The notes under the pieces are model-generated. The model was given only the letters and a program-made list of their open reading frames with translations, was not told the DNA's origin and made no database searches. Shown in pieces: positions 1-55,440 of a stretch of DNA of 64,000 bases. A program made the translations under genes and the position numbers. Positions within the stretch are counted from its first letter, which is position 1, and every line of letters starts with the position of its first letter. The stretch spans positions 32,281,307 through 32,345,306 of the forward strand of contig JAHRHZ010000018.1 in the NCBI GenBank assembly GCA_024137785.1, given 5' to 3'. The DNA is from Ginglymostoma cirratum. Its lineage: Eukaryota.

Positions 1-130
1 CTGGATGAACACAGCAGGCCAAGAAGCATCAGAGGAGCTGCTCCTCTGATGCTGCTTGGCCTGCTGTGTTCATCCAGCGCTACACCTTGTTATGTCAGAT
101 TCTCCAACATCTGCAGTTCCCACTATCTCT
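1..130. mobile_element. Fold-back Penelope-like element terminus (family B), probably truncated by the window edge
   Basis: 1-38 and 40-77 are reverse complements with 1 mismatch. The right arm and its continuation match the terminus that follows the Penelope ORF at 21780-21833 and the copy at 31530-31590. Confidence 0.8.
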
Positions 131-1059
131 GAGATAATATAACAACTTGTTTTAAAAGTGACCTAAAATTTGCCAATGAGGAAGCAAAACCGTACCTGAA
201 AATGTGAACGTAATTTTTGCTTGCCTTAAGAAAGCATTAGTAATCTTCTGTCTTAGCATCATAACTACAGTAAGAAAATTTAAAACGTACAATTCTTCTA
301 AATGGAAGCTCAGTTTTTTTTTCATGATTCACTGACCAGAGTTGTGTGTTTTCAGGGTTTTGTACTAATCACGTGCTGAGTACTATCGCAACAGCTGACT
401 TATGGTGAGTGTAGGGGGAAACATTAGAACTAAGTTCAAACATATGATCACTGGATTTCTGAAAGTCCTATAGTGCTGCCCAGAAGTCCAGAAATTCTGT
501 TAATTGGCCTTAACCAACACTTTGGCTACTCCAGATCATAAAAGCCTCCTTTCAAAAAATAGAGAAAGCTTGGATTTGCAGATGATTACATTTTTCTGGC
601 CCTTCTGAATTCAGTGTTAACCAAGAGACCTGACTGTTTAGATCTTGTTTAAAGTTTGAAGTGATACAGGCAGTGGTTATTATTCACACTTAATTTTTAA
701 CATTTGTTTTAGAACCAAGTTAACTGATTAAAACAATGAATTTGAAGCGTTTTGAATTAAATTTTGTGTCATTTTTGATGAACTCACATTTTAGTAATTC
801 CTGTAACTTAGTTTTCCATTGTGTTTGAGTATGTTGGTGTCTGAAAGCACTTCACACAGTTAATAATTTTGAAGTGCTGTGTCTATTATCTAGGCTAATT
901 CTCCTGATGATGTCCTCAAAATTTGTTGGTGTTGACATCACCTAAACTGAATAACTAAAATTGTTTAAGAAAAATGAATACAATATTTATAGACTTTTTT
1001 TCTTCTCCTAAAGTGCATGTAACATCTGCCTGCATTCTGATGTTCCTTTTCTCTGTTAG

Positions 1060-1278
1060 GGTAATCCTGATCCGCCCATGCAGGTCAGCAGAGTTGGTTC
1101 AGTCAGGCGTGAGCTTCCAAGTTTGCAGCATCGTCACCACCCTCTTCGGTCCAAATGCCGACCACCAAAAGGAATGTATCTTAGCCAAGAAGATGTTGGA
1201 GCCATGTCCTGCAGCCCAAATGCAGCAAGTACCATTCTTAGACAGCTTGATATGGAACTAATCTCATTGAAGCGCCAG
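1060..1278 (+). CDS. RCOR3: REST corepressor 3, internal coding exon (linker region before SANT2)
   Basis: Acceptor ttttctctgttAG at 1058-1059, donor CAG|GTattt at 1279. The 219-nt phase-0 exon reads [73 protein letters not shown], recognisable as RCOR3. Confidence 0.96.
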
Positions 1279-10760: not shown

Positions 10761-11019
10761 AACTCCTTATAGACCTTTGCATTGAAAGGGTATCCTATTT
10801 GCCGCCCTCCTGCCCGCACTGATATTTCTGCAGTTTTATGTAGGCTAGGAATCTGTATGCCCCAGCCTCAATTTTGAGCATGACAAGAGGAGTTAATGGG
10901 TAGTGCAGAAGCTTAGTCATCCATCATCCTCAGGTTTTGAGCACAAAGTGGAAAAATATCCTACAATGCGCCTGTTTCAACTCGACAAAATAGCTAACAG
11001 CCATTTGCTGATTCATTTC

Positions 11020-11170
11020 TGAAGCCCCGACCAATCGATCAACCTGCCTGGTTTGAAATTTAAACAAAGTGTGGCAGTTAACTGCCAATCACATATTTTT
11101 TACAAATTTCCCTGATGAGCGCAACACAAAAAAACTTTAACAAAATATGTCTTTTTCCAGTAATACACTT
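11020..11170 (+). mobile_element. Probable Penelope-like terminus with degenerate hammerhead (family D)
   Basis: CTGATGA at 11112-11118, then a gcg-caa-cac remnant stem and AAAA in place of GAAA. The family assignment rests on resemblance only. Confidence 0.4.
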
Positions 11171-14100: not shown

Positions 14101-14289
14101 TCATGGGGAATAATTGTTCTTTGACTAAAAGAAGGTATACTTTGGAGTTCTCCAGGCATTCATTCAAGGACCAGTATTTTTCTTGATATATACTAATGGC
14201 TGAGCTTTGCGTGTGCAGGGCACAATTTCAAAATTTGGAAATATTGTAAGCTGTTGAATGACAGTGATAAACCTCAGGAGGACTTACTA

Positions 14290-14667
14290 AATAAAAACCG
14301 AAAGAACTGCAGATGCTGTAAATCAGGAACAAAAACAGAAGTTGCTGGAAAAGCTCAGCAGGTCTGGCAGCATCTGTGAAGAAAAAATCAGAANNNNNNN
14401 NNNNNNNNNNNNNNNNNNNNNNNNNNNNNNNNNNNNNNNNNNNNNNNNNNNNNNNNNNNNNNNNNNNNNNNNNNNNNNNNNNNNNNNNNNNNNGGAAAAG
14501 CTCAGCAGGTCTGGCAGCATCTGTGAAGAAAAAATCAGAAGGTTAACGTTTCGGGTCCAGTGACCCATTCTGAGGAAGGGTCACTGGACCCAAAACATTA
14601 GTTCTGATTTTTTCTTCACAGATGCTGCCAGACCTGCTGAGCTTTTCCAGCAACTTCTGCTTTTGTT
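14290..14667. mobile_element. Fold-back Penelope terminus (family A), hammerhead-bearing, spanning an assembly gap
   Basis: Inverted arms meet near 14567. Flanked by caggaggactta (14275-14286) and caggacgactta (14668-14679), a 12-bp TSD with 1 mismatch. Confidence 0.85.
14394..14493. other. Assembly gap (100 N)
   Basis: Run of 100 Ns. The 47 nt before it (14347-14393) are repeated exactly after it (14494-14540). Confidence 0.99.
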
Positions 14668-15057
14668 CAGGACGACTTAGGCTGGTGGAATGGGCAGATC
14701 TGACATAGAATTGTGAAGTGTTACATTTTTGATAAGTAGAATGAAGAAAAACAATTGAAAATAAAGGAGGCAAATCTAAACATGAGGCAGAAACAAAGAG
14801 CTTTATTTTATTGTGCACAAATTGTTGGATGGCAAGGCAGGTTGAGGAAGTATTTAAAAATCATGCTGGATTCTGGACTTTACAAATAGAGGCAAAAACG
14901 ACAAAACAAGGAAGTTATGATGAAGTTTTATAGAATTCTGATTGACCTCAGTTGAACTACTATGTCTAATTCTGGGAGCCATAGTATTAGAAGGATGTAA
15001 AGGTTTTAGAAAGGGGTGCAGAAAAAAGTTACAAAAATGATTCCATAGATGAGGGAC

Positions 15058-15285
15058 AAAAATTGCTAGGAAAACCTAACCGGTCTGGCAGCATCTGTGG
15101 AGAGAAAGCAGAGTTAATGTTTTAGGTCCATGACCCTGCTTCAGAAATGTTCTGTTCAGTTCAGTTCTGAAGAAGGGTCACTGAACTTCTTTCTCTCCAC
15201 AGATGCAGCCAAAGCTGCTGAGCTTACCCAGCAGTTTCTGTTTTTGTTCCTAATTTCTAGCATCTGCAGTTCTTTGAGGCATTTA
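15058..15285. mobile_element. Older fold-back Penelope terminus (family A)
   Basis: Diverged inverted arms. Flanks tccatagatgagggac (15042-15057) and tccagagctgagggac (15286-15301) form a 16-bp TSD with 2 mismatches. Confidence 0.75.
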
Positions 15286-18200
15286 TCCAGAGCTGAGGGA
15301 CTTCAGTTCATAGGTAGAGTAGAGAAACTATATTGATTTCCTTTGGAGAATATTAAGAAGAGATTTGACAAATATTCAAAATTATGAAATCTGGACAAGA
15401 ATAGATAGAGGGAAGCTATTGCTTTTAGCAGAAGGGTCAAGTACCAGATTTAAGATGTTTGTTAAAAGAGCTTTCAGTGCCATGAGGAATGAGACTTCTA
15501 CATAGAAAATATTTAGGGTCTAGAATACACTCCATGACAGAATAGTGAGGGAAGATGCAAACAATACTTTCAAAACAGTTGGATAAAGACCTTAGCAGAA
15601 AATGTTTGCTGGGTTGTGGGGAGGGGCAGGAGAGTGGAACAAGATAAGTTGCTTTCGACAGAGCTGGCACACAGTAGATGAGCCAATGTCCTCCTGTGCT
15701 ATAAGCATTCTCTGATTCTGTGTCACTGGATTCCTTATTGTGCAAATCAGACAACAAGCACGATGGGTTTGCAGTACATTTTCCAATTGCTATTGCTCTT
15801 GGACAAAAGTTTAATTGATTGGATCTTCCCAAAAGTGGCATAGTTGATCAGATTGCGATGCTGCTTATAAGTACTCCATTACTGTCAGGATCATCAGATA
15901 TCAGCTATCAAAGATTTGCACTGTGCAATGTCCCTTGGAACTCCACTGGAGCTTGGAGGGATGGGGAGGAGACAGGACACATCTCTTTTAATGGCACTAG
16001 CTGCCATGTGGTAAGTTTAAAGGTACAGTTTGAATGTTAAAGTGGATGGGTGGGTGAAGTGGTACATCAAGAGTAATCATGTTGGTGTGTAAACAGAGGT
16101 GTAAGGGTTGCACAGTTAGCTGGTCATAAGTAGTGGTGGAGTCAGGATGGGAGTGGGTTGGGAAAGCAATCAGTTTGTGTCCTGGTCAGGTATTCGATTG
16201 CATGGTGTCTGGGCTTAGATTGTCAGGTATGGTTGAGGGAGTGTTCAGTGATCATGGAGCTGTTGGGCGCAATGGGGGTTGACTGGGGTGTCAAGTATCT
16301 TTACCCAGATGTTATTCTAGATTTTAATCTGTCAAACACTTTCTGACCAGCCACCCAGGTAGATACTGCAAAACTGTTCAAAGTCTCCACAGAGGGTCAG
16401 GGGAACAGAAAGCAGAGAGTTTAAACAATCTGGGCTATTTCCACAGATGTCCACATATCAGAACTTCCACAAGTTCACAAATGGCATCTTCAATCATGCG
16501 TCTGAATTCCAACGATCCAGAGACTGAAAGATGTCACTCATTGTATTTATGCTAAATTCTTTTGCATGCATTTAAAATACAATCATGAAGAAGTAAGTAG
16601 TGAACCAATTACAAGTTTGCGAAGTGTTTTGTATGAGAACTGGATCAGTCAAAAAATGCACACTGTTGCTCTCACTAAAGAAATTTGATGCCAGAGATAA
16701 ATACAATTCCCCCATTGATCAGACTTGTCTATAGTCTCAAATATGATGTAGGTAAGGTACAGATTGTCAGGTTATTTGACTTAATGAATTATTGCAAGCA
16801 GATTTCAGCAGCATATTTATTGAAAGTTGTGCATGCATTATTCGCTGCATACAGCAAGTGGCAGTATTTTGTTAGGGTATTTTACAATTGGGGTAAAGAA
16901 GCCAGGAAGGGGATGGGAAGTACTCCAGAAGTATGCTTGTGAGGTTTGTTGGTATTTGTCTGGATGTTAGGTTCTTGAAGATGTATTTTCATTAAACCTT
17001 TAAGAAAACAGCCTTAATAGGGTGTCAATTTTGACTTCTGTATCTTAACTGCTTATTGTTGAGTTGAAGGGGGTGAATAAAAGAGGAGGGTATCAATTTC
17101 AGTCTTGGAAAATATTTTTATCTTCTAAGATTGTACTGCCAGAATTGGGATGTGTAATCCAAAAGGTAATTTCTGGAGGCAAAAATTGCAGTTTCTGGCA
17201 GGAATTTTTGACTAACAAGTTACTCTTTTTAAAGATGCTTTTTCTGGACAAATTCTTAAAGATACTCCTATACTTGAATAACTATTCAAATTTAAGGACA
17301 TCAGTGCTTCCAAGTTGTCTTAAAAGCCTGGAATTAGGCCTATGGATACACCTCCTGAAGACATATCTGAACATTAATAATTCAAACAAAGATTTTGATT
17401 ATACATGCTTACTAATACAGACATGTTTTGCTTATTAGTTCTATTAAAGAGGCAGCCAGGCCAGCTTCCAAAAAATAATATTTTCACTGGGACCCTTTTT
17501 AGTTTTATTTTATCTGTGTTATTAATCCTTTTTTCTATTTCAGATAACTTAGCTGCCTGTATATATTCCAGCATTTTCTATGACTGTATTGATTTCCAAC
17601 AAATACCCTGTGTGTATTTCAGATTTCAGCATTCATCCTTGCAAATGGGTGGGAAATATGTTTTGGCGTTATGCAATAAATCTCAACAAGTATTTACTAC
17701 ATTTTTTTTTGAGTAATACACTTTGCTGCCCAGGTACTGCACTTCTAAATATCACAATCCTGAGGTGGGGTGAATAATGGAATCAACAATTGCAAACGCG
17801 TATTTGTAGAGTACAAACATACTATCTGTTGAATTATGATGGAATGGATTTTACGTAACTATTATTAAACTATATCAATTAGTATCTAATTTTATTATAA
17901 GCCATTACCTGAAAAAAGTTTGTTTTACATTAGTGTGTGGAAATGAAAATTTTTCTGGAAAATTGAATTAATTGCCTGCAATGCACTAATAGAGCAAAAC
18001 ATTCCACTGGCTAGCTCTATTGATTTTTTTTTAATCATCCAGCAATATATTTATTATATTCATTCTCATGAAGTGCGCGTTTTATGTGCTTTCAAATAAA
18101 TGAAGCACATCGACACCCATCTACAGATAGTGACAAGCTTAAAAATTAATTAAAGTAGGAGATATGAGAGACCAAGCAAAACCTGGTATGTAACTATAGC

Positions 18201-20032: not shown

Positions 20033-20760
20033 GTGAGCTTCTTCTGAATCTGGGATTTCACAAATGTCCCTATTCTTTTGGCATTTTATGGGTACAGTAT
20101 TAATGAAGCAATCAAACAAAAAACCCAAGGCCTCTCGGACGTGTTGGATTTTACATAACACTCAGCTGCTTCTAGATGTTCTTTGGCCACCAGCACTCTT
20201 ACGATAATAACATTTTTTCATTTCTTAGGATAATAACTTGTTTGTTGTATAATCAGTACTATTTTATTTGCCTTTTAAATTAACCTTGGCTATTCAAAAG
20301 TTTGAGTTATGCGAATATGAGCATTCTGCTTGAATGATACGTCAGGTATTCATTACAACAGTGAACACAATTACAAGTTTGTAGAAGCATTGGAAGTGGG
20401 AGCATGAGTCAGCCACTCGGCCTGCTGAGCCTACACCGTCACTCAGATAGATCAAAGCTAGTTGTCTACCTCTACTACGTATTTTCCACTATCTCCTATC
20501 CCTTGATGTCCTCAGTGAAATTTTAAATCATTACAAGGAGGAATTCATTAAACATATAATTTTCTGTTTGTCTTCCTCGTGAGCAAGATTTATGAAAATT
20601 ATCAGAATCTTGAAATATCCATACTTGTTTTTGACAGCAATTTAAAGTTTATTTTAATTAAAGAAGTAGTTTGGCACTGAAATTGCCTCAAATTGGAGGT
20701 GGATTCAAGAACTGTCAATTTTGCTTCATTTGCCAGTGCTAGAAAATCTCTCCAGACATT

Positions 20761-21833
20761 TCTCCCGCATTTCCCGGAACACATCCCTCACGCCCCGTCC
20801 CCACAACAATAACCAAAAAAGAATCCCCCTCGTCCTCACATACCACCCCACCAACCTCCGGATCCAACGCATCATCCTCCGACACTTCCGCCATCTGCAA
20901 TCAGACCCCACCACCAGAGACATTTTTCCCTCCCCACCCTTATCTGCCTTCCGGAGGGACCACTCCCTCCGCGACTCCCTTGTCCGCTCCACACTCCCCT
21001 CCAGCCCCACCACACCCGGCACTTTTCCTTGTAACCGCAGGAAGTGCTACACCTGCCCCCACACCTCCTCCCTCACCCCAATCCCAGGCCCCAAGAAGAC
21101 TTTCCACATCAGGCAGAGGTTCACCTGCACATCTGCCAGTGTGGTATACTGCATCCGCTGTACCCGTTGTGGCTTCCTCTACATCGGGGAAACCAAGCGG
21201 AGGCTTGGGGACCGCTTTGCAGAACACCTGCGCTCAGTTCACAACAAACAACTGCACCTCCCAGTCGCGAACCATTTCAACTCCCCCTCCCATTCCTCAG
21301 ATGACATGTCCATCCTTGGCCTCCTGCAATGCCACAGTGATGCCACCCGAAGGCTGCAGGAACAGCAAATCATATTCAGCCTGGGAACCCTGCAGCCCAA
21401 TGGCATCAATGTGGATTTCACAAGCTTCAAAATCTCCCCTCCCCCAACCGCATCCCAAAACCAGCCCAGCTCATCTCCGCCTCCCTAACCTGTTTTTCCT
21501 CTCACCCCAAGCCACACCCCCATCTCCTATCTACTAACATCATCCCGCCCCCTTGACCTGTCCGTCCTCCCTGGACTGACCTATCTCCTCCCTACCCCCC
21601 TACCTACACTCACCTTTACTGGCTCCATCCCCGCCTCTTTGACTTGTCTGCCTCCTCTCCACCTATCCTCTCCTCTATCCATCCTCTATCCGCCTCCCCC
21701 TCTCTCCCTATTTATTTCAGAACCCTCTTCCCCTCCCCCATTTCTGATGAAGGGTTTAGGCCCGAAACGTCAAGTTTTCCTGCTCCTTTGATGCTGCTTG
21801 ACCTGCTGTGTTCATCCAGCCCCATGCTTGTTA
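20761..21833 (+). mobile_element. 5'-truncated Penelope-like retroelement (Neptune-type): Cys linker, GIY-YIG endonuclease and 3' terminus
   Basis: Uninterrupted ORF to 21488 with RIPLVLTYHP, CNRRKCYTCPH and VVYCIRCTRCGFLYIGETKRRLGDRFAEH...HF...LGTLQPNGIN, followed by a C-rich 3' region and a hammerhead motif. Confidence 0.93.
21740..21775 (+). ncRNA. Minimal hammerhead ribozyme motif, core intact
   Basis: attt-CUGAUGA-a-GGGU-uuag-GCCC-GAAA-C-GUC-aagu. Conserved core, stem II GGGU/GCCC, palindromic ACGU stem III, short stem I (auuu/aagu). Predicted cleavage after C21771. Confidence 0.75.
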
Positions 21834-23922: not shown

Positions 23923-24164
23923 GTGTCCGTAAATATGGAAAGGACTTTCAAGCCATCGCAGATGTGATTGGAAACAAGACTGTTGGACAAGTGAAAAACT
24001 TTTTTGTTAACTACAGACGTCGTTTTAATCTTGAAGAAGTCCTACAGGAATGGGAGGCAGAACAAGGAACACAAGAATCAAATGGAGTGTCTCCTACCTC
24101 AGGGGATGAAGGAAAGCCTGCCTTGATTTCTGTTCCAGCAAAAAGTCCAGATGTAGAGGAGGAG
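23923..24164 (+). CDS. RCOR3: RCOR3 coding exon (body of SANT2 domain)
   Basis: gactgcAG| acceptor, 242 nt encoding [49 protein letters not shown]...DVEEE, |GTagta donor; restores phase 0. Confidence 0.96.
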
Positions 24165-25414: not shown

Positions 25415-25732
25415 GTTCAACCTCCTCCAGCTTCTGGCCCAGCACCTCCAACTCCAGTTACTGTAGCTGTTACATGCGTTGCTACTTTAAACCAACCTCC
25501 ACCGTTACTTCGACCAGTGCTTCCTGCAGCTCCTGCTCTTCATCGTCAGCCACCTCCACTCCAGCAACAGACTCGTTTTTTACAGCCAAGACCAACTCTT
25601 AACCAACCTCCACCTCCACTAATTCGCCCAAGTAACCCTATTCCACCCCGCTTGAATCCTAGGCCAGTACTGCAGCAGCCTCCATCGCTGATTGGAATTC
25701 AGTCAGAATCACAGCCTTCATCTTTACATTGA
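25415..25732 (+). CDS. RCOR3: RCOR3 last coding exon (Pro-rich C-terminus)
   Basis: tttcttttacAG| acceptor, then VQPPPASG...[48 protein letters not shown]...[14 protein letters not shown] with TGA at 25730-25732. This tail is diagnostic of RCOR3. Confidence 0.96.
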
Positions 25733-28730: not shown

Positions 28731-29463
28731 TTCAATATAATTTGAATTACACCGAAGGAAACTCCAGGTATGGATTGCATTAACAAAAAGAAATCAAAGT
28801 TGAGTTCCACAGATGTCAGGGTATGTATAAAATCCAAGAAAACATAAGAGTAGCAAGGATGAGACCACACTAAAACAGAGGTAGAAATGTTCATAAAGAA
28901 TTTTTAAGAAAGCAGAAACTTAACATTTTGGTAATGAATAAATCAGCAATTTGCATTTGTTAAATAAGTGGTGATTATGAGACAGATGCATCACTGCAAT
29001 CCAGATTGAGATGACAATGGTGGATTGATGAAGGAAAGTTGATGAAATGATTGGAAAACGAAGTGTGGATGTGAAGGATGGTACGGATTTCAGTTAGCAA
29101 GAATCATCGTGTACTCACATTTCCTTTTGTGGTTAGGCCACTGAAATGCTTCTGTAATTGCATCAAGGAACAGGCACAATCTTGCTGCTCTACACCCTAC
29201 TACTTGCAATCATTGTCAATGATAACCAGACGTTTCTTCTGCTCATTTCTGGGGAATGTATGCGCTTCCTGCTCCTGACTACCTGCAGTAGTGATTTCGG
29301 TCATGCATCATTGAACATAGTTGCTATCCTTGTTTGACAAGCTTTAATTTTCATTGATACGTTGTCCCTTGAATACAACTGAGATTGCTTCATGTGGAAG
29401 TACATCACACTTACTATGAATCTTGGCAATGTAAAACGTAGAAGTTAAAATTGTTTCAAGTTA

Positions 29464-29783
29464 GGAACAAAAACATCAGTTGCTGGAAAAGCTCAGCAGG
29501 TCTGGCAGCATTGGTGAAGAAAAATCAGAGTTAACGTTTTGGGTCAGGTGACCCTTCTACAGAACTGATGGTATTGGAATGGAAATCCCATTGGAGAGAG
29601 GATGTTTCTCTCGGACAGGATTTCTATTCCAATACCATCAGTTCTATTGAAGGGTCACTTGACCCGAAATTTTAATTAACTCTGATTTTTCTTCACAGAT
29701 GCTGCCAGACCTGTTGTGCTTTTCCAGCAACTTCTGTTTTTGTTCCTGATTTACAGCTTCTGCAGTTCTTCTGGTCTTTGTTT
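29464..29783. mobile_element. Fold-back Penelope terminus (family A variant), about 280-bp hairpin
   Basis: 29464-about 29600 pairs with about 29606-29746 almost to the centre. Each arm has a degenerate hammerhead; a one-sided tail runs 29747-29783. Confidence 0.88.
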
Positions 29784-31485: not shown

Positions 31486-31495
31486 ATGTAGGAAA

Positions 31496-31590
31496 TTTCT
31501 GAAGAAGGGTCTAGGCCCAAAACGTCAGCTTTCCTGCTCCTATGATGCTGCTTGGCCTGCTGTGTTCATCCCACTCTACACCTTGTTATG
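31496..31590 (+). mobile_element. Solo Penelope terminus (family B) with hammerhead, GAAA mutated to AAAA
   Basis: CTGAAGA-a-GGGT-ctag-GCCC-AAAA-C-GTC at 31499-31526; near-identical to 21741-21833. Confidence 0.85.
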
Positions 31591-33270
31591 TCAAATGTCA
31601 AGGTGTGGTGGTTAGATTGTCTCTTATTCGCGATGGTCGTAGCCTGGCATTTGTGTGGCATGAATGTCATTTACCACTTGTCAGCTCAAGCCTGGATATT
31701 GTTCAGATCTTGTTACATTTGGACATGGACTGCTTCACTATCTGAGGCGTTGTGAATGGTGCTGAAAATTGTGCAATCATCGGTGAACACCCCACTTCTG
31801 ACCTCGTGACGGAGGGAAGGTCATTGATGAGGCAGCTGAAGATGGTTGGGCTGAGGATACTACCCTGAGGAACTCCTGCAGAGATGTCCTGCAGCTGAGA
31901 TGACTGACCTCTATCAACCATAACCACTGCCAGGCATGACTCCAACCAGAGAAGAATTTGCTCCCGTTACCCTTGATTCCAGTTTTGCTAAGGTTGCTTG
32001 ATGCCACACTTGATCGAATGCAGCCTTGGTTTCAAGGGCTGTCACTCTCACCTCACCTCTGGAATTCAGCTTTTTTGTCCATGTTTGAACCAAGGCTGTC
32101 ATGACATCAGGAGCTGAGTGGCCCTGGCGGAACCCAAACTGGGTGTCAATGAGCAGGTTATTGTTGAGCAGGTACTGCTTGATAGTGCTGTTGATGACAC
32201 CTTCCATCACTTTACTGATAATTGACAGTAGACTTGTTGAAGACTGGTATCTGTAATGCTGAGGACCACTGAAGGAGGCTGAGATGGTTCTTCCACTTGG
32301 CACTTCTGGCTGAAGATTGCTGCGAAAGCTTCAGCTTTATCTTTTGCACTGATGTGCTGGGCTCTTCCATCATCAAGGATGGGGATAATTCCAGAGCCTC
32401 CTCCTCCAGTGAGTTGTTTAATTGTCCACCACCATTCATGACTGGATGTGGCAGGAGTTCAGAGCTTAGGTCTGATCCGTTGGTTGTGGGATCACTTAGC
32501 TCTGTCTATCGCTTGCTGCTTTCGCTGTTTGGCATGCAAATGGTCCTGTTTGGTGGCCTCACCAGGTTGACACCTCATATTCAGGTATGCCTGGTGCTGG
32601 GCCTGGCATGCCCTCCTGCACTCTCCATTGAACCAGGGTTGATCCCCTGGGGGATATGCCGGGCCATGAGGTTACAGGTTGTGCTGCGGTACAGTTCTGC
32701 AGCAGTTGATAGCCCACAGCGCCTCATGGATGCCCAGTCTTGAGTTGCTAGGTCTGTTCAAAGTCTGTCCCATTTAGCATGGTGATAGTGCCACACAACA
32801 CGATAGAGGTTATTCTCAATGTGAAGGTGGGACTTTGTCTCCATAAGGAATGTGCAGTGGTCACTCTTATCAATACTGTCATGGACAGATGCACGTGCAA
32901 GGTGTGAGGTTAAGTATGCTTCTCCCTCTTGTTGGTTCCCTCACCACCTGCTGCAGACGCAGTCTAGCAGCTACGACCACCTCGATCAGTAGTATTGCTG
33001 CCAAGCCACTCTTGGTGCGGACATTGAAATATCCCAGCCAGAGTATATTTTGTGCCCTTGCCATCCTTAGTGCTTCCTCTAAGTGTTGTTCAACACTGAG
33101 GAGTACTGATTCATCAGCTGAGGGAGGGCAGTACGTGGTAATCAGCAGAAGGTTTCCTTCCCCATGTTTAACCTGCAGCCACAAGACTTCATGGGGTCCA
33201 CGGACAATGTTGAAGACTCCCAGGCCAACTCCATACTGACTGTATACCACTGTGCCACCACCTCTGCTGC
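31591..33270 (-). mobile_element. CR1-group LINE (APE endonuclease plus RT) fragment
   Basis: Minus-strand peptides VREPTRGRSIL, QFGFRQGHSAPD, AAFDQVWHQATLAKL and AGVPQGSILSPTIFSCLINDLP. Same family as 37213-40050. Confidence 0.9.
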
Positions 33271-34512: not shown

Positions 34513-34617
34513 CCATGATGTGGAGGTGCCTTCATGCTGAAGGAGCAGTGCTACAAAAGCTTGTGATTTCAAATAAACCTGTTTGACTATTGCCTGGTGT
34601 CATGTGACTTCTGACCT
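34513..34617 (+). mobile_element. Short Penelope-terminus insertion (family E) with degenerate hammerhead and perfect 13-bp TSD
   Basis: taggaaatgaatg at 34500-34512 and 34618-34630. Inside, tgctga-a-GGAGC-agt-GCTAC-AAAA-gctt is read as a decayed CTGATGA...GAAA. Confidence 0.7.
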
Positions 34618-34878
34618 TAGGAAATGAATGGTTTCATTGTGCGTTGTGGTTTCAGATTAATACTATTGATTATTACTGAGGATATTGATTGAACTCTTCT
34701 CTTTCTGTATCTGTGTGAGTCAACACATGTCATACAGAAGGTACTGTTAGTATATGGTTGCAACACCCAAAAATTGAGTTAGTGAGAATAAAAAAGTAGT
34801 CCCTGAAAATCAGAAAGTAGCCCTCAAAAGTCTGAAGAGGAGTCTACAAAATAAAATTATTTTGAAATAAAATATTAA

Positions 34879-35097
34879 CTCTACCTATCGTTTACTCCCT
34901 ACCTGCTCCCTCCAACCTACCTTCTACGTATAAACTGACATTTTCCAAGCCACCATCAGTTCTGACGAAGGGTCACTGGACCCATAACATTAACTCTGAT
35001 TTCTCACCACAGACACCTCCAGATTTGCTGAGCTTTTCCAGCAATTTCTGTTTTTGTTTCTGATTTACAGCATACGCTGTTCTTTCGGTTTTAATTT
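34879..35097 (+). mobile_element. Penelope terminus (family A) with degenerate hammerhead
   Basis: CTGACGA-a-GGGTC-actg-GACCC-ataa-catt from 34962, followed by the family A body and tail. Confidence 0.8.
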
Positions 35098-36087
35098 GAA
35101 ATTATTTTGACTTTTGGTCATGACAGAAATTGGCTCATCATAGTAAATTTGTTAACTCATGAGCACAGCCCAGAGCAGGTAGACTGAGACAAAGACCACA
35201 GAGGGAAAGAATCTTGCCAAGAGAAGGAAGAATCCAGCCAAGGAGATTCATTACAAGCAGAGAAGCAGGGCTGTTGCTTTTATTAGTGGATACTAACTTC
35301 ACTACGGGGGATAGACAACACCTTTGGCTGAATAAACCAAAAATCTGCTGTTGCATGGATTAAGCTACTGTGGGTTCATCACCAGGAAATTTCAGGCCCC
35401 ATTGTTTTAGGTGAATTAAGAGAATACTTAAGTCTGCTGGCTTCTAACCACCATCTTGGGAACTGCTAACTGAAGTGACTTTTTTCTTGAATCTTTACAA
35501 AATCTAAGAAAATGCTTCTACTCTTCTAATCACCTTTTTCTTGTGTGTGTCTTAAATGAATAAATGTTGGATGTTGTTGCATTTACACTTCAGGAGTTGA
35601 GAAAATTAATATTTATTGTTTCTTTTCAAGAGAGCCTGTATTGTGCCTGTCCTTGAAAGACAGGGAGCTCAAAGGCTTAAAACATTTCTAATTTAAAATC
35701 CATTTCTCGTTGCAGTCAGTTGGAAATTTGAAAAAGCAGAGATTATCTCTGTTCCCTTTCATAACATTGGGCATTATTCAACCACGTAGGTTCTTTGGAC
35801 AATCTAGTTATGTCATGGTCAGTATTACTGAGTCTAGCTTTTAATTGCAAATGTGAATATAAATTCCATTGCATGTCCAAATGTTTAGATGACTAATCCA
35901 GTAACATTATCACTGGCAATCATGTATTATTTGTTTGAATGGCCAGTCATTTTATTCTCAATTACTGATTCTAACAGCTTCCCACAACAGATGTAGTTGT
36001 GACCCCCATTGTTTCCATTCCAATTTGTTCCTCATTCTATGTTTGCAGTCCTGTTTGGTGTCTAACCCATTTCTGCTTATCCACAGG

Positions 36088-36350: not shown

Positions 36351-36764
36351 TTTACTCGTCTCTTTCCTCAGTGAGCACCATTTCATCTATCGTGCCCATT
36401 ACATTGCTGCCAAATTCCTAACTCCAGCTTTACTTGCGTTTGAACTTCTTTCTCTCATCTCAGCTTCTCCTTTCCACATAGACCCTAGTCAGTCTCTATC
36501 TGTCCCAATCTCTTTCTCACTATGAACATCAGTCTCATCTCAGCTAGAAACTATGCTGCCACTGTCTTTTTTGGTTTCTCTCACAAAGGTGGAACAAGCA
36601 AAGTATTACAACATGTCACACTCCTCCTCCATATCTCAAATGAAAGCTAAGTCCATAAAAAAAGAGCAGAAGAGAAAAAAAATAATGAAAAAGGTGTAAT
36701 TAGGCAAAGCAACAGCACAGCGACAAATGTCTGGCAGTTCTGACAGCAATTCTGATGGACAGCC

Positions 36765-36883
36765 ACCAGACCAAAACATTAACTCTGCTTTCTTCCCACA
36801 GATGCTGCCAGACCTGCTAAGTTTCTCCAGCAATTTGTTTTCATTTCAGATCTCCAGCAACACCAGTTCTTTGTTTTATTTCA
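36765..36883 (+). mobile_element. Truncated Penelope terminus (family A)
   Basis: accaaaacattaactctgctttcttcccacagatgctgccagacctgctaagtttctccagca. Confidence 0.75.
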
Positions 36884-37212: not shown

Positions 37213-40050
37213 TTTTATTCATTAGTGTGATGTGAGCATCACTGGCTGACCAGCATTTATTGCCCATCCCTAGATGCTCTTTTGAAGGTGGTGGTGAGCT
37301 GCCTTATTGAACAGCTGCAGTCCACCTGCTGTAGGTTGACCCACAATGACATTAGGGAGGGAATTCCAGGATTTTGACACAGCGACAATGAAGGAACGGC
37401 GATATATTTCCAAGTCAGGATCGTGAGTGACTTGGAGGGGAACTTGAAGGTGGTGGTGTTCCCAAGTATCTGCTGCCCTCGTCCTTCTAGATGTAGGTGG
37501 TTGTGGGTTTGGAAGGTGCTGATGAAGATCTTTGGTGAATTTCTGCAGTGCATCTTGTAGATAGTACACACTGCTGTTACCGAGCATCGGTAGTAGAGGG
37601 AATAGATGCTTGTGGATGTAGTGCCAGTCAAGCGGGCTGCTTTGTCCTGGATGGTATCAAGCTTCTTAAGTGTTACTAGAGCTGCAACCATCCAGAATAG
37701 TGGGGAATATTCCATCATACTCCTGACTTGTGCCTCATAGATGGTGGGACAGGCTTTGGGGAGTCAGAAGGTGTGTTACTCGCCGTAGTGTTCCTGTCCT
37801 CTGACTTGCTTGCGTAGCCACTGTGTTTGTGTGTCAAGTCTAGTTGAATTTCTGGTCAATAGTAACCCTCAGGATGTTGATAGTAGGGGATTCAGTGATG
37901 ATAACATAAGTGAATGTCAAGGGGCAGTGATTAGATTGTCTCTTGGTGATGGTCATGGCCTGGCAAATGTTACTTGCCACTTGTCAACGCAAGCCAGGAT
38001 ATTGTCCAGTTCTTTTACATTTGGACATGGACTGCTTCAGTATCTGAGAAGCTGCAAATGGTGCTGAACGTTATGCAATCATCAGTGAACATCCCCACTT
38101 CTGATTTGAGGATGGGGCAGTAGGTCATTGATGAAGCAGCTGAAGATGTTTTGGGTGAGGACACTACCCCGAGGAACTCCTGCAGTGATGTCCTGGAGCT
38201 GAGATGACTGACCTCCGACAAACACGATCATCTTCCCATCTGCCAGGCATGACTCTAACCAGTGGAGAGTTTTCCTCCTGATATCCATTGATTCCAGTTT
38301 TGCTAGGGCTCCTTGATGCCACATTTGGTCAACTGTAGCCTTGATGTCTCATCTCACCTCTGGAATTCAGCTCTTTTGTCCATGTTTGAACATGGCAGAA
38401 CCCAAACAGGGCATCACTGAGCAGGTAATTGCTGAGCAGATGCTGCTTGATAGTACTGTTGATGACATCTTCCATCACTTTACTGATGATTGAGAGTAGA
38501 CTCATGGGGCGTTAATTGGCTGGGTTGGATTTGTCCTGCTTTTTATGTACAGCACATACTTGGGCAATTTTCCACATTGTCGGGCAGACGCCAATGTTGT
38601 ACCTGTGCTGGAACAGCTTGGTTAGGGCAGCAGCAGGTTCTGGAGCACAAGTCGTCAGTCCTATCGCTCGAATATTGTCAAGACCCGTAGACTTTGCATT
38701 ATCTAGTGTCTCCAACTGTTTTTTTGATATCACATGGAGTGAATCGAATTGGCTGAAGACTAGTAACTGTAATGCTGGTAACCACTGGGAGAGGCTGAGA
38801 TGGATTATTCAGTTGGCACTTCTGACTGAAGTTTGCTGCAAAAGCTTCAGCCTTATCTTTTCACTGACGTGCTGGGCTCTTCCATCATTGAAGATGGAGT
38901 TATTTGTGGAGCCTCCTCCTCCAGTGAGTTGTTTACTGTCCACCACCATTCATGACTGGATGTGGCAGGACTACAGAGCTTAGATGTGATGTGTTGGTTG
39001 TGGGATCGCTCAGCTCTGTCTATCACTTGCTGTTTATGCTGTTTGGCATGCAAGTAGTTTGGTGGCTTCACCAGGTTGATACCTCATCTTCAGGCATGCC
39101 TGGTGCTGCTCTGCTCCTGGCATGCCCTCCTGCACACTCCATTGAACGAGGGTTGATCCCCTGGCTTGATGGTAGTGGTTGAGTAGGAGATATGCCTGGC
39201 CGTGAGGTTACAGATTGTGCTGCAGTACAATTCTGCTGCTGTTGATGGCCCACAGCACCTCGTGGATGCCCAGTCTTGAGTTGCTAGATCTGTTGGAAGT
39301 CTGTCCCATTTAGCATGGTGATAGTGCCACACAACATGATGGAGGGCATTCTCAACGCGAAGGCGGGTCTTGGTCTCCACAAGAACTTGTGGAAGTCACT
39401 ATCACTGATACTGTCATGGATAGATGCATGTGCAGCAGGCAGATCTGTAAGGATGAGGTTAAGTATGTTTTCCCTTTTGTTGGTTCCCTCACTACCTGCC
39501 GCAGACCCAGTCTAGCAGCTATGTCCTTTAGGACTTGACCAGCTCGATCAGTAGTACTGCCGCTGAGCCACTCTTGGTTGAGCATTGAAATCCCCCACTA
39601 GAATACATTTTGTGTCCTTGCCATCCTCAGTGCTTCCTCCCAGTTCAAAATGAAAGAGAACCCATTCATCAGCTGAGGGAGGGCAGTAGGTGGTGATCAG
39701 CAGGAGGTTTCCTCACTCATGTTTAACCTGAAGCCGTGAGATTTCATGGGGTCAGAGTCAATGTTAAGGGCTCCCAGGGCAACTCCTTCCTGACTGTATA
39801 CCAGTGTGCTGCCACTCCTGCTGGTTCTGACCTGGTGGTGAGACAGAACATATCCAGGGCTGGTGATGTTGGTGTCTGGGACATTGTAAGGTATGATTCT
39901 GTAAGTACGACTATGTCAGGACATTGCTTGACTAGCCTGTGAGACAGCTCTCCCAATCTAACCCCCAGATGGTAGTGAGGGGGACTTCGCCAGGTTGATA
40001 GGACTGTTTCTGCCGTAGTCTTTTCTGATGCCTGGGTTACTGCCAGGTGA
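37213..40050 (-). mobile_element. CR1-group LINE, long decayed ORF2 (APE plus RT) with 3' tail
   Basis: Peptides LGELSHRLVKQCPDIVVLTESYL, VWHYHHAKWDR, KLCSPATSSHEWW, WKIAQVCAVHKKQDKSNPAN, AGVPRGSVL and MEYSPLFW...LDTIQDKAARL. Confidence 0.92.
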
Positions 40051-47765: not shown

Positions 47766-47879
47766 GCATATTTCCCTTCTTTTAAATAATGGTGTGGAAG
47801 GGGGTTTAGAAAGTCTATGCAAGTTTGTTTAAATGCGTTGCAGTGTTTCACTAGTCAACAAATTAGGGCCATAGGGTAG

Positions 47880-48280: not shown

Positions 48281-50479
48281 CTTGGGGTTGGTGGGAAAAT
48301 GTGTCAGAGAACGATCTCCAGTTTATTTCTATAGCTTTATTCCAGTGATCTGAAGTGGACTTTTTTTTTCCTGTAATTATTTCTAGATATTTAGCAGGAT
48401 GCAGCAAAAGCCTTTTGCACGTCCCACATATTAATGCAAAATGTGTGAGTATCTATAAATGACTGGTATGGAGTCTCTAGTAGGAGGGTATTGGTAAAAT
48501 GGGCTCAAAATGAGCAGGCTCTTTACAGCTTCCAACAACATGGAGCTATGCTCTGAGGGCTCTGTGCTAAGTAAACTTGAATGTAAACCATCTCCTATCA
48601 ATTGTAACCAATTGGTAACTGGAACAAGGCTGCGTTCACCACCACCACCACACATGACAAGTGGGATTGTCAATGAATGAAGTATTCTTCAACTTTTAAA
48701 ACTAATTGACCTGCCCTGCTGTTCTGTAGATCAATTGACCAATTTAGTATTCTTAGTTTTCATTTTTGTTTGACTTCAATTGCCTGCTGGTCAGGTGGTT
48801 GTGAGCAATTTTTCAAATCTGGAGTAAGCCGCTTGGCCCTTCAACTTAAGCTGTGCCATTCAGTAAGATCATGGCTGATCCCTGATTTTTAAACTACGAC
48901 CCCTAGTTCTAGATTCTCCTCGAAGAGGGAGCATTGTCTTTACATCTACCCTGTTGACATTCCTCAGGATCAAGTTGCTTTGTCAAGTTTGCTTCCATCA
49001 ATTTGAATCTTATTCTTCCAGTGGATATAACCCTACTGTGTCCAACCCATCTTCCTAAGGCAACCTGCCTATTCTCGATATTGGGCTAGTAAACCTCCCT
49101 GAACTGTTTCCAACAATCTACATTTGTCCTTAATTAAAGAGGCCACTACTGTTCACAGTACCCCAGATGTGGTCTAATCAATATTCTGTAGTTATTTTAA
49201 TCAACCTGTTGGGACATGCTGTTACATACCACCAGGGCAAGTGGGACTTCAACCCAGACCTTGGGATACTACCACTGTGTCACGAGACCCCTTCCAATGT
49301 CCTGTACAGTCGAGGCATAACATCTCTGCTTTTTCCAATTCCCTTCACAAATAACAGTAACATTCTATTAGCTTTCTTACACAAAGCCACTATAGTCCCA
49401 GCAAACTATAGGGCTAATCTCTTACAGAGAGACACTGGTGGTGAGTTTAACCTGAGGGTCATCACGCCTTAGGTAAGGGGTGAGGTTGAGAAGGCAGTAC
49501 CTTCATGGTAACCTCAGCCAGAGCAGTGATGTTCCTTTGCATAACAAACCAGCAGTCCAGCCAAATGAGCAAACTGACATTAACAGTAGACAAGATATAT
49601 TGTTATCTCCTAACAGGTGTTTGCTAAGTCTATTCTACATGTTCTAGTCAGTTCTACACACTACAAACCAGCGTAGAATATCTGACTAGCTCCTCTTAGA
49701 CAATCATATATTTCTCAGTCAGCTGAGCTATTCCAAAGCTTTTGAGTAAACCCTTTCAGGCTTATACAACAATATCCTTGACAACTTACTTTTCTGCCTA
49801 TCTTTGTGCTTTCAGCAAATTTAATAACCAAAGGGAGCTTGTGGTCCCTTCATATTTGGATGGAAATCATGCAAACACTCCAGCCTATGAACTCTAGGAG
49901 TAAAATATATATTTAAGCTGTCTAGTACGGAAATGAATGCAACATCAAAGAAAATACGGAAAATAGAATGAAAGGGTATATAAATCGTGTTGCGCTTAAA
50001 GGTTTATAATCCTGTTATTCAAAAGAGCGATGAAGTGCAACCTAGAAATTAAAACGCAATTAAGATTGCAAATAGAAACTTCATAATAGCTTTCACAGGG
50101 GTGTTCTGTATCCAACCTGGCCTCAAATTATCTTTTTATTTGAGAAAGTATCTAAGTCAATGAGGAGAGATAGTTGGTGAATCTATGTGCTTTGACTTTA
50201 TGGAAGGTTTTGGCTCTTCATTTAACGTCCAGTAAGCTAATAGTACTATCACATATTTCCTTTTAAGGTGTAACTGTTTTATGAATTGGTTGTTTGCCTT
50301 TTTCAAAAAAAATTGCCAACAAAATTAAGTCAGAGAGGTAAGCTCAGGAGGAAACCACTGCATTTTTAGCATAATGGAGAAACCAGCAAAATTCTACAGA
50401 AAGAGCAGCTGTGATCATAGTCAGCTGAACAATTCAGAATGATTGTTCCAGGCTGATATTCATGTATTCTGACTCTGTA

Positions 50480-50870
50480 CAGCCATCAGAATACATGAAC
50501 ATCAACGAGCAGCAAAACAGCATGATGAACTCTCCTTAATATCGGTACACTCAGACAATGAAGACCATCAGGTTAACTGGGACAAAGTAACCACAGTTAC
50601 TTTGGTTCTTACCAAAGCCAAACATAGACACACACGGGAATTCCTAGAGGCATGGTTCTCCACCCATAATGCAATCAACAAACACATAGAAGTGGGCCCC
50701 ATATACGAACTCATACAGATCAAAACTGGAAATGACACTGCTCACCATAACGGACTGGACAGTATAAATTCCAAGTGGAGTAGAATAACATCGCTTCATT
50801 GGAGGCTCCCCGGATGATGCCACCCAGCATGGTGATGAAACGTCTGAACGAGAACAAGCCGGCTCGATGT
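50480..50870 (+). mobile_element. Penelope/Poseidon-type GIY-YIG C-terminal fragment with terminal hammerhead remnant (family C)
   Basis: AIRIHEHQRAAKQHDELSLISVHSDNEDHQVNWD...AKHRHTREFLEAWFSTHNAINKH, then cGGATGA-t-GCCACC-cagcat-GGTGAT-GAAA-C-GTC at 50811-50844. Confidence 0.8.
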
Positions 50871-50896
50871 TGAGATAGCATTTGGTTATCTTCCAC

Positions 50897-53420
50897 AGAA
50901 ATATAGAAAATAGGAGCAGGAATAGTACATTTGGCCCTTCAAGCCTGCTCCACCACTCAATATAATCATGACTGATCACATAACTCTGTACCTTGTTCCC
51001 ACTTTCCCTCTGTACCCTATGATCCCTTTAGCCCTAAGAACTTTATCTAATTCCTTCTTGAAAACATTCAACATTTTGGCCTCAACCACTTTCTGTGGCA
51101 AGAGAATTCCACAGGCTCAGCTCTGTCTGGGTGAAGACGTTTCTTCTCATCTCGGTTCTTAATAACCTACCCCATACCCTTAGACTGTGATGCCTGATTC
51201 TAGACTGACTGGTTATTGGGAATACCCTTCTTGCATTTACTCTGTACAGTTCTGTTAGAATTTTATTGGTTTCTATGAGATATCCCCTCGTTTGTTTAAA
51301 CTCCAGTGAATGTAGTCCTAACCGATCCAGTCTCTTCAAATATTAGTCCTACCATCCCAGGAATCAGTCTGGTAAACTTTTGTTGCTCTCTGTCCATGGC
51401 CAGAGCATCCTACCTCAGATAAGGAAACCAAAACTGCGTACAATACACTAGGTGTGGTCTCAACAAGGCCTTACACCATTGCAGCAAGACGTCCCTGCTC
51501 CTGGGCCCAAATCCTTTTGTATTTTGGCCTTCATAATGATTTTTCTTCCTCAATGCCTGCTGTATCTGCCTAGTTACTTTCAGCAACTGGTATATGAGGA
51601 CACCCAGGTCTCGTTGCACTTACCCCTTTCCTATTCTATTACCACTCAGATAATAGTCTGCCTTCTTGTATTTCCTATCAAAATGGATAACCGCTCATTT
51701 TCTGAGGAAGGGTCACTTGTACCTGAAAAATTAACTCTAATTTCTCTCCACGGATCATGCTGGACCTGCTGAGCTTATCCAGCAATATCTGTTTTTGTAA
51801 GCTCACATTTATCCACATCATTCTTCATCTGTCATGCATTTACCCACTCACCCAACGTGTTTAAATCATACTGAAGCATCTCTGCATCCTCATCATAGTT
51901 CACCCTCCCACCCAGCTTTGTGTTAACTGTAAACTTGAAGATATTACGTTGAGCTCCTTCATTTAAATCATTACTATATATAGTGAACAGCAAGGTCCAA
52001 GCATCGATCTGTGGTAACTCACTAGTTACTAGCTGCCATTTGGAAAAAGACCCATTCATTCCAACTCTTCGTTTCCTGTCTGCCAACCAGTTCTTCCTCC
52101 ATCTTTGTACACTATTCACAATCCCATGTGCTTTAACTTTCATGCTAATCTCTTAAATGGGACCTTATCGAAAGCTTTCTGAAAATCCAAGTAAACCACA
52201 CCCACTGCTTCTCTGTCATAAATTCTACTCGTTACATCCTTGAAAAACTCTAGTAGATTTGTCAAGCATTATTTCCCTTTTGTAAATCCGTGCTGGCTCT
52301 GTCCGATCCTGTCATTGGTTTTAAAGTGCTCTGCATTAAACATTTTATAATGGACTCCAGCATTTTCACCATTACCGATGCCAGACTATGAAGTCTATAA
52401 TTCTCTGTTTTCTCTCGAGCACTTTTATAAAGTAGTGGGGTTACATTAGCTACCATCCATTCCAGAGGAACTATTCCAGCGTCTATTGAATCTTGAATAA
52501 TGATCATCAATGCATCCACTATTTTTAGGGCCACTTCCTTAAGTACAATGAGCTGTAGATGATCAGGCTCAGGGATTTATTGGCTTTAAGTCCCATCAAT
52601 TTCCCCAAGATGATTTCCCTATTAATAACTGATTTCTTTCAGATTGCCCCTCTCTCTAGACCCTGCATTCCTCAACAATCTTTGGGACTTATTTGCATCT
52701 TCCCTTGTGAGGACAGAATCAAATCTGTACTTAATTAGTCTGTCATCACCTCGTTCTCCATTTATAATGTCCCCTGTTTCTGACTGTAAGGGAGGTACAT
52801 TTTTCTTGGCTAATCTTTTTCTCTTCACAATACCTATGAAAGCTTTACAATCAGATTGTATGTTCCTCTCAAGCTTACTGTCTTACTCTATTTTGTCCTT
52901 ATAATCAATCCTTGGGTTCTCCTTTGCTGAAACATAAGCTATTCCCAGTCCTTAGGTCTGCTGCTTTTCTTGACCAAGTTTTATGCCCCTTCCTTGGACC
53001 TTATGCTGTGCCTGATTTCCCTTGCTGACCATGGTCAGGCCTGCTTTCTTGTTTATTTTGGTGCTACACATGAATGAACAATTATTGCAGTTTCTGCATG
53101 CCACTTGTTAGATGTTTGCCGTTGCCAATCCACTGTTATCCCTTTGGGTAATGTTCCACAATTTATCATTGCCATCTCAAGCCTCGTACATTCATAGTTT
53201 CCTCTATTTACATTCAGGAACCTAGTCTCAGAATCAACTCTATCACTTTAGATCTTAATGAAGAATTCTATGCTATTATGGTCACTCTTTTCCAGGGGTC
53301 TTCACACAGCTACATTGCTAATAATTTCCTTTCTGATTATAAATTACCCAGTCCAGGATGGCCCCTTTTCTAGTCAATTCTTCAATGTATTGATCCAGAA
53401 AACCATCCTGCACATGCTAC
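50897..53420 (-). mobile_element. CR1 LINE, long decayed ORF2 plus 3' end
   Basis: Minus-strand peptides WMVANVTPLLYK..REKTENYR, NWLADRKRRVGMNGSFSKW, LRPHLVYCTQFWFPYLR and RLDRLGLHSLEF. Confidence 0.9.
51699..51798 (+). mobile_element. Solo Penelope terminus (family A) nested in CR1
   Basis: CTGAGGA-a-GGGTC-acttg-tacct-GAAA-aatt from 51702; the CR1 sequence resumes after it. Confidence 0.75.
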
Positions 53421-53469
53421 ACATATGTTTGGACTTGTGATAGAGAAAGAAAGAGAAACAAAATCTTGC

Positions 53470-55440
53470 AAGCAGACATTAGGGAGTTAGGTAAGAAATT
53501 GAAAAACAGAATTTCAAAGGTGGTAATCTCCAGAATATTCCTGGTGCCAAGCAGTAGTGAGTATAGGAATAGAACATATGAAAGCATGGCTGGAGTGACG
53601 ATGCTGGAGGGAGGGCTTTAGATTCCGAAAGTATTGGGATCATTTCTGGGGGAGGTGAGACTTGTACAAGTTAGAGAGTTTACATCTGAACAGGAATGGG
53701 ACCAACACTGTGGTGGGGAGGTTTGCCAATATGTAGATGTTGTGGTATATTTAAATTAGACTTACAGGGGGCTGGGATCCTGACAAGTAATTCAGAGGAG
53801 AGAGAGCAGTGTTAGAATTAGAAGTTAAAGTGCTGAAAGGCAAAGGAAACTTAAACTAGGTAAGAAACAAGCGAGTTTTGCAAAGATAAATAGGACTTAT
53901 TTTAATGCAAGGTACCTGAGGAATAAGACAGACAAGCTGAGGGCACAGGCACACACGAGTATGATATCATAGTTATGATTGAGATCAGTTGAAAGATGGG
54001 CAGTTTTGGCAGAATGAATTCTGAGTGACAGAATATACCTGCACATGGAGAGACATCAATCAATCAGGGATAGTCAATATTGATTTGTTAAGAGAAGATT
54101 ATGTTTGACAGATTTGATTGTATTTTTGTGAGAAGGTATGCAGGAATATTGGAACAAAAACAAAGTTGCTGGAAAAGCTCAGCAGGTCTGGCAGCATCTG
54201 TGAAGGAGAAAACAGAGTTAATGTTTCGGGTCCGGTGACCCTTCCTCAGGAATATTGATGACAGTAATGCATTTGATGTGATCTACGTGGACTTTACTAA
54301 AGGGTTATGATAAGAACCCTCATGGCAGATTGGTCAAGAAAATGAGAGCTCCTGGGACTCCAGGTGAAATGGCAGGCTAGATCTGAAATTGACCAAAAGG
54401 CAGGGAATGGGGGTGATAGTTGAGGGATGCTTCTGTGACTGGAAGTCTGTTTCTAGTGGAATTCCCCAGGAGTTGGTTCAAGGGCTCTTGCTATTTGTAG
54501 TACACTGACCATTTGGACTTAAACATAAGCGGCATGATCGAGAAGTTTGCAGATAACACTAAAATTGCTAGGCTGGTGAATAGTGAGGCAGATACTCGTA
54601 AACTGCAGAAGGATATCAACAGACTGGTCAGGTGGACAGAGTAGTGGCAAATGAAATTCAACCTAGAAAAGTGTGTGGTAATTTACTTCACAATTCTAAC
54701 CAGGCAGTGGATTACACTGTGAATCGTAAGACCCTGGAAATTATTGGAGATCAGAGGGACCTTGGTACGTATGTCCACAAATCCTTGAAGATAGCAGAGT
54801 TGGTAGTAACAATGGTTAAGAAGGCATATGGGATACTTGCTCTAATTAGTTGAGGCATAGAATACAAGAGCAGGGAGGTCATGCTGGAACTGTATTAGCT
54901 GCTGGTTAGGTCACAACTAGAGTATTGTGTGCAGTTCTAGTCACCACATTATAGGAAAGATGTGATTGAACTAGAGAGGATGCAGAGGAAATTTAACAGG
55001 ATTCTTTTGGGCTGGAGGGCCTGAGCTATGGGGAAAGATTGAATAACCAGGAGTTGTTTTCATTGAAGTATTGCTGGTTGAAAGGCGACCTGATTGAGAT
55101 ATATAAGATTATAAGGGACATTGATATAGTGGGTAGGAAGGCACTTATTCCATTTGTAAATGGATCAATAACCAGGGGCATAGATAAGCTAAGAAGTAGA
55201 GAGCTAAGTGGGGATTTGAGGAGAAATTTCTCAACCCAGATGGTGAGGGTGAGTCTGGAACTCACTGCCTGGAAGAGTGGTTGAGTCAGAAATTCTCATA
55301 ACATTGACACAACATTTACATATTCACTTGTGTTGCCATCGCCTCTAGGGCTCTGGTAAATGAGACTGCTGTAGTCAGATCTTTGTTCACCAACGTGGAC
55401 ATGATAGACTGAATGGCTTCCTTCTGTGCTGTAAATATGC
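53470..55440 (+). mobile_element. CR1 LINE with ORF1 SGNH-esterase remnant and internally deleted ORF2
   Basis: WREGFRF..WDHFWGR.DLYKLESLHLNRNGT (ORF1 esterase), RT motifs DVIYVDFTK, SGIPQ and KFADNTK, and a CR1 tail. Confidence 0.85.
54152..54249 (-). mobile_element. Solo Penelope terminus (family A) with hammerhead and perfect 11-bp TSD
   Basis: caggaatattg at 54141-54151 and 54247-54257. The minus strand of 54249-54217 reads CTGAGGA-a-GGGTC-accg-GACCC-GAAA-CATT. Confidence 0.88.

Follow-up and report, generated by a model that had tools for sequence, protein, structure and literature searches.

The window (the whole 64-kb stretch of DNA analysed here, from a genome of 4.36 Gb) contains 18 hammerhead-terminus arms of five families of Penelope-like elements (PLEs), with 11 arms in family A, four in family B and one each in families C, D and E. 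The original prediction had listed 13 hammerhead sites, all of which we checked by alignment to PLE-terminus families. All 13 align to these families; their sequences identify them as what is left of minimal hammerheads from the termini of the five PLE families, and only the site at 21744 is still intact. Arms at 15145 (-), 36751 (+) and 14286-14392 (-), as well as a ribozyme-less palindrome at 1-127, were absent from that list. The features are:

1..127, no strand assigned: family B head-to-head palindrome, starting 3' of the cleavage site and lacking the ribozyme
10944..11166, +: family E (old PLE) terminus with an internal deletion; core at 11112, G12 lost
14286..14668, no strand assigned: family A head-to-head pair, cores at 14570 (+, G12 lost) and 14572 (-), junction within the core; 13-nt target duplication with 1 mismatch; palindromic insertion split by an assembly gap of 100 N (14394-14493)
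15039..15286, no strand assigned: family A head-to-head pair (15145 -, 15167 +) with decay in both arms, 15167 lacking the 3' strand of stem II and GAAA
20734..21833, +: 5'-truncated copy of family B, a young Neptune-type PLE (97.5% to the RT- and EN-bearing element L182; Pfam)
21709..21714, +: TATA-like box TATTTA, 35 nt 5' of CUGA, in a predicted core promoter
21740, +: putative initiator-like A of the predicted core promoter
21740..21775, +: minimal type I hammerhead (strict descriptor), the sole intact one of the window
29463..29782, no strand assigned: family A head-to-head pair in which one arm has a tail and the other has none, the core broken at CUGANGA in both arms
31495..31596, +: short family B copy that starts 4 nt 5' of CUGA; core at 31499, G12 lost
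34536..34619, +: family D (Neptune-type) short copy without the 5' half of the core; site 34539, G12 lost
34877..35101, +: family A copy that retains a tail and 85 nt of the pLTR (TATAAA at 34929); ATAA in place of GAAA (site 34962)
36744..36880, +: old A-like remnant, one of those absent from the earlier list
50481..50867, +: family C (Penelope/Poseidon-type) endonuclease C-terminus, pLTR and hammerhead at 50811 with U4 changed to G
51700..51798, +: short family A copy that starts 2 nt 5' of CUGA; breaks in stems II and III
54151..54252, -: family A short copy, core (54249) intact, stem III palindrome broken (CG to CA); perfect 11-nt target duplication

The copy at 20734..21833 comprises the 3' part of an ORF (Zn-finger linker and GIY-YIG; frame ending at 21488), a pLTR, the hammerhead and a short, tail-less 3' end, in that order, and its hammerhead is predicted to cut after GUC, between 21771 and 21772. 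Exons of REST corepressor 3 lie at 23853-25732 (+; E 3e-37), with a SANT exon near 23913-24167 and a proline-rich frame at 25391-25732; the intact hammerhead, on the same strand and upstream of them, is probably intronic. A LINE-type element is present in two copies that are 75-80% alike (31594-33269 and 37913-39823), with an RVT_1 fragment at 31914-32330 (-). At the assembly gap, 47 nt are duplicated on both sides (14347-14540), and many such palindromes occur at gaps in other loci. In the pair at 29463..29782, the 61 nt at the centre (29573-29633) form an imperfect palindrome with no relation to the A pLTR beyond a 22-nt match in locus L130, possibly sequence captured via a template jump preceding fold-back. 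The family C copy has at its 5' end a short inverted junction (50454-50504, 85% palindrome), a typical PLE 5' inversion.

In family B, a single reading frame encodes both RVT_1 and GIY-YIG (Pfam), and a CxxxxCxxC linker lies between the two. Families A and D have degenerate upstream frames with a linker of the same CxxxxCxxC type, while family C has a short linker without it. A single upstream ORF with RT and C-terminal GIY-YIG is thus recognized by Pfam in B, and in A, C, D and E through degenerate endonuclease-like translations only. The prediction had placed two motifs directly behind GIY-YIG fragments of different clades; this stands for 21744 (PF01541, E 2.4e-5), whereas the fragment at 50473 has no Pfam match alone and the motif (VVYKIPC..YIGQT) appears in longer copies of family C. 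A query with the family B endonuclease gave 156,919 first-look candidates, and nearly all of the 142 that were scored are about 96% identical. Family E, which has an old endonuclease-like frame common to three copies, presumably belongs with the Penelope/Poseidon type by its general resemblance. In the available text of PMC8557442, PLE clades are separated by a CX2-5CxxC motif between RT and EN. Families A, B and D would be Neptune-type by this linker, which is shared with Nematis, and C would be Penelope/Poseidon-type, both being motif-based and not tree-based assignments. The predicted PLE origin, the number of about five families and the two clades are supported.

Consensuses for A, B, C1, C2, D and E, with CpG restored, all retain the CUGANGA/GAAA core, a NUH site and a loop-less palindromic stem III (ACGU in A, B and C, AGCU in D and AAGCUU in E). 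Pairing is markedly better within than between consensuses, both in stem I (23/24 own vs 49/120 swapped) and at positions 2-4 of stem II (15/18 own vs 29/90 swapped), which supports covariation of both stems across families; a C-G/U-A change between the family C subfamilies is a further case. Among the stem II sequences originally proposed, GGGUC/GACCC, GGGU/GCCC, GUYACC/GGURAC and GGAGC/GCUCC hold, and GCG/CAC was a misparse of one decayed copy of family E, whose five exact genomic matches have GU/AC, a 2-bp stem without the extra base; stem II of family E measures only 1-2 bp. Older A-like subfamilies (L073, L085, L103, L235 and L053) have a GAGUC/GACUC stem II and longer loops, and their sequences suggest more than five families genome-wide. 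In several family C copies (e.g. L032, L043 and L054), the stop codon of the ORF is the UGA of the ribozyme core.

A strict descriptor passes 1 of the 13 listed window sites (21744) and finds 17 matches in 424.5 kb of position-blind genome, against 0 in the reversed control and 0-2 per Markov shuffle. An Rfam scan of the window with E up to 10 returned no hammerhead family and eight weak unrelated matches; the Rfam models miss these minimal forms. Tandem Repeats Finder reported no relevant array in the window.

Words from the family B terminus are too common for a DNA search, so genome-wide counts were made with exact patterns, which ignore stem I and, for family C, admit some stem II mismatches. 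These patterns match 64,510 times in B, 6,090 in A, 646 in C, 152 in D and five in E, about 71,400 in total, with none in the reversed controls; the very large population that had been predicted is real. A position-blind sample of 72 readable stretches out of 130 (681 kb) contained 217 arms, of which 146 span the ribozyme. Extrapolated directly, this gives 1.39 million arms genome-wide, a figure that is too high as it stands, because the sample held 21 exact A and B motifs where genome counts predict 11.0; calibration suggests about 0.7 million. We estimate the total, including decayed arms, at 0.7-1.4 million. At 0.28 arms per kb, compared with 0.32 in the position-blind sample, the window is not enriched. 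Arms measure at most 150 bp in 152 of 199 cases and at most 380 bp in 177. The terminal pieces of 100-380 bp in the prediction are therefore mostly short, and its upper size includes the 100-N gap with duplicated flanks.

The prediction had also spoken of a ribozyme system, a description that is not supported. Most copies are catalytically broken: in the position-blind sample, core and ACGU are both intact in only 9 of 50 copies of family A and 29 of 77 of family B. Few have a direct neighbour (same strand, same family, within 1 kb; 5 of 146 ribozyme-spanning copies). The inverted partner of a head-to-head pair is on the opposite strand, and so cannot serve as a dimer partner; in a host transcript, such a pair forms a long hairpin. 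Moreover, the catalytic G12 sits within a CpG in every family and is lost like other CpGs. The share of copies without it is 28/85 in A, 5/56 in B, 5/45 in C, 22/40 in D and 22/38 in E, the change being to A in families A, D and E. For A and B these figures leave out loci chosen by intact-pattern or own-family best-match searches, for C and E those chosen by pattern, and for D nothing. Since the dispersed copies decay even at G12, they are transposon debris and not a maintained ribozyme system, and as host biology they are probably neutral.

A host-maintained network of dispersed ribozymes that cut intronic RNA as dimers is accordingly a reading to which we give hardly any credence. It could draw on the at least 64,510 exact B motifs and on the abundance of B sequence in polyA RNA, where 42,738 of 12.9 million records matched the family B copy (one run, apparently unstranded and fragmented, same species label). 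However, 73% of these reads run into unrelated flanks, and the matches fit dispersed copies inside host transcripts. Computed active dimers are also less stable than the best alternative dimer fold by 6-28 kcal/mol; these modelled folds are in line with the weak or protein-dependent cleavage described in the available texts of PMC4209133 and PMC11167929. A further point in its favour is that families A, B and C show less variation at non-CpG positions of the core than in the tail, but the contrast is absent or reversed in E and D. Because subfamilies differ and registers shift, this contrast is also confounded, and we rejected it as evidence of selection.

On the B copy, this one fragmented polyA run, a weak test, had no pile-up of read ends at either the predicted transcription start or the cut site, and none of the 15 joints listed among 155 was a splice joint around the ribozyme. 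Read depth in the 5' part of the B ORF is low (about 2-125, at stricter likeness than for the 42,738 reads) and falls towards the 5' end; another RNA run (X22) gave 33 and 0 reads.

The copies are informative in where they begin. With the first base of CUGANGA (C3) numbered 0, short Neptune-type copies start 3-8 bases before CUGA, about 30 bases 3' of a TATA-like box, and not at the cleavage site. Across all loci, with edge cases removed, family B places 66 of 229 5' ends at -7 to 0, one at -30 to -11 and seven at the cut site; family A places 89 of 191 at -7 to +1 and three at the cut site; and family D, in a search-selected sample, 42 of 71 at -10 to +6 and none at the cut site. Among position-blind loci alone, the interval from -10 to +5 takes in 43 of the 80 ends in family A and 41 of the 98 in family B. 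In family A, 26 of 191 ends fall in the 26 nt upstream of its peak. Unbiased family C loci have no 5'-end peak (3 of 23 ends between -20 and -6), nor does family E, in which several ends near -16 are internal deletions.

Long copies preserve the sequence upstream of this boundary, with motifs that we take to be TATA-like boxes and initiators from general promoter consensus. The boxes lie at -33 in A (5/5 references), -35 in B (6/10) and -37/-38 in D (2/4), and the initiator-like A lies at -4 in A, -4 in B and -7 in D. Family D ends are further upstream than those of B (median -7 vs -3, P 4e-5), and the B mode at -3 (T) falls one base short of the initiator-like A. The short copies have no TATA-like box upstream. 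Six loci were fetched for the 5' region of the ORF: L327 starts at -5 and extends across the tail and the UTR to reach the ORF (ATG at +165), L330 has the pLTR upstream in a partial tandem, the upstream part of L329 is masked, and the other three are cut short at more internal points. In the available texts, pLTRs are described as containing a start site (PMC6765202) and TATA/initiator-like motifs (PMC3846280). The Drosophila virilis Penelope promoter, as given in that of PMC2377424, is internal and TATA-less, so that the stubs need not be silent.

At the other end, 3' ends are bimodal and about 35 nt apart, the difference being the tail. In 82 of 108 inverted pairs the tail is on one arm only, a published PLE signature in the available text of PMC8557442. 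Together with the pLTR partial tandem in L330 and the inverted, 5'-truncated copies, this one-sided tail of 30-40 bp agrees with the features of EN+ PLEs. Target duplications of at least 8 nt flank 10 of 40 short solo copies, against 0.4 in shuffled pairs, and the short solo copies are therefore true insertions.

Taken together, we favor, at a probability of roughly 0.6, the reading that the motifs are the mostly decayed hammerheads of five PLE families and that the pieces of 90-140 bp are likely abortive cDNAs, primed internally and extended as far as the 5' end of an RNA that had not been cleaved. This reading builds on the observed family identities, two 3' ends, target duplications, 5'-end pile-up before CUGA and core decay; its promoter, priming and run-off steps are proposed. 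Specifically, transcription from a TATA/initiator promoter in the pLTR would begin with stem I, at its first base or a few bases 5' of it, such that the ribozyme would take up the first ~32 nt of the RNA and precede the ORF, whose ATG is at +165 in B. Nicking of the target and priming 90-125 nt downstream (+90/+125) would be the work of the element's protein. On a unit-length RNA, cDNA synthesis would halt at the RNA start and leave a promoterless stub; on a read-through tandem RNA, it would continue into pLTR and ORF. Priming of both nicked strands would yield a head-to-head pair with one tail. Cleavage, which would depend on dimer formation or on help from the element's protein, would take away the 5' end and leave at most a minor trace among inserted copies, uncleaved RNA being the main template. 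The Anolis element PAc, as described in the available text of PMC11167929, with two adjacent internal RT starts, extension of both strands, unprocessed RNA as substrate and cleavage only with protein, fits this scheme by analogy.

The short pieces could instead be non-autonomous retrozymes, or RNA circles that the hammerhead had cut free and that were then inserted anew. Such a model was proposed in PMC4209133, and retrozymes are noted in one chondrichthyan in bioRxiv 10.64898/2026.07.22.740005, as far as the available texts go. The small group of family B ends located at the cut site would suit it: seven ends at +28 to +30 exceed the 2.3 expected (P 0.01, with the window chosen post hoc and two rows sharing one junction), and from this mild enrichment some cleaved RNA may be used. 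Nonetheless, cut-site ends amount to 7/229 in B, 3/191 in A and 0/71 in D, direct neighbours within 1 kb to 5/146, and no permuted units were seen among the copies, all of which makes this origin quite improbable. In L312 (-), near 2999, family B position +164, just before the ATG, is joined to +28, the predicted cleavage site; this single case at a locus edge might reflect template jumping from the end of a cleaved RNA.

A different origin of the 5' boundary itself would leave the PLE debris as it is: reverse transcriptase might stall or switch template at the ribozyme fold or a bound protein, or the endonuclease might re-cut at the T-rich site before CUGA, without the RNA starting there. In A and B the boundary does fall on the 5' strand of stem I, complementarity within stem I links -3/-4 to +28 to +33 at some inverted junctions, and the PAc endonuclease prefers ATT in its own pLTR (PMC11167929, available text). 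A reverse transcriptase moving 3' to 5', however, would reach stem I first at +28 to +35; the D boundary moves with the D TATA box though its stem I is also 4 bp; and the upstream edge in B is hard (1/229 in -30 to -11). We regard stalling or re-cutting as unlikely.

Returning to abortive cDNAs of uncleaved RNA, we hypothesize more boldly, at odds a little short of even, that Neptune PLE RNAs start at the first bases of the hammerhead and that hundreds of thousands of stubs are strong-stop-like cDNAs of uncleaved RNA, often made from both nicked strands. If so, the genome would be a fossil read-out of the transcription start and of two RT start sites, and the ribozyme would be a switch that removes the 5' end of the mRNA rather than a cutter that defines the inserted unit. 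In the literature searched, which lacks most subscription journals, we found no paper linking stub ends to transcription start. The role of PLE hammerheads is called unclear in the available text of PMC8557442, and family B brings this role within reach of a test, since it is young, its intact copies run to tens of thousands and its ends are sharply mapped: our reading predicts an RNA start within a few bases and that cleavage rarely defines the template. The count exceeds the published main-text figures that we found, which matters for ribozyme censuses, and the supplements of PMC4209133, Lunse 2016 and the bioRxiv preprint may list cartilaginous-fish motifs or counts.

Massive dispersal of minimal hammerheads has been described before, with ~4,000 in coelacanth and ~9,000 in Xenopus (PMC4209133; comparisons here refer to the available text of each source). 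The copies described here share with those motifs type I topology, CUGANGA/GAAA, an extra base before stem II, G10.1-C11.1 and palindromic 15.2-16.2, as well as the many consensus families, mainly dispersed singly from truncated PLEs, with some opposite-strand pairs. They differ in number (~71,400 exact matches, though search methods differ), in the 2-bp stem II and 6-nt palindrome of family E, and in the 5'-end pile-up, for which that text describes no counterpart. With Neptune-clade EN+ PLEs (PMC8557442), they have in common RT, the CX2-5CxxC linker, C-terminal GIY-YIG, 5' truncation, an inverted adjacent copy and a 30-40 bp tail at one end, but about half of the arms here are reduced to ribozyme and tail. 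Anolis Poseidon PAc (PMC11167929) also has two 3' ends, a hammerhead near the ORF start and insertion independent of cleavage; its ORF starts in stem II, whereas that of family B starts 165 nt after C3, and the Poseidon-type family C has no stub peak here. Like non-LTR retrozymes (bioRxiv 10.64898/2026.07.22.740005), the short copies are pLTR-derived, hammerhead-bearing, non-coding and dispersed as monomers. Unlike them, they form no tandem arrays, direct neighbours being few and ends lying off the cut site instead of bounding head-to-tail units, and they come with head-to-head pairs and target duplications. Overall, this is a known kind of element, unusually numerous and mostly dead.
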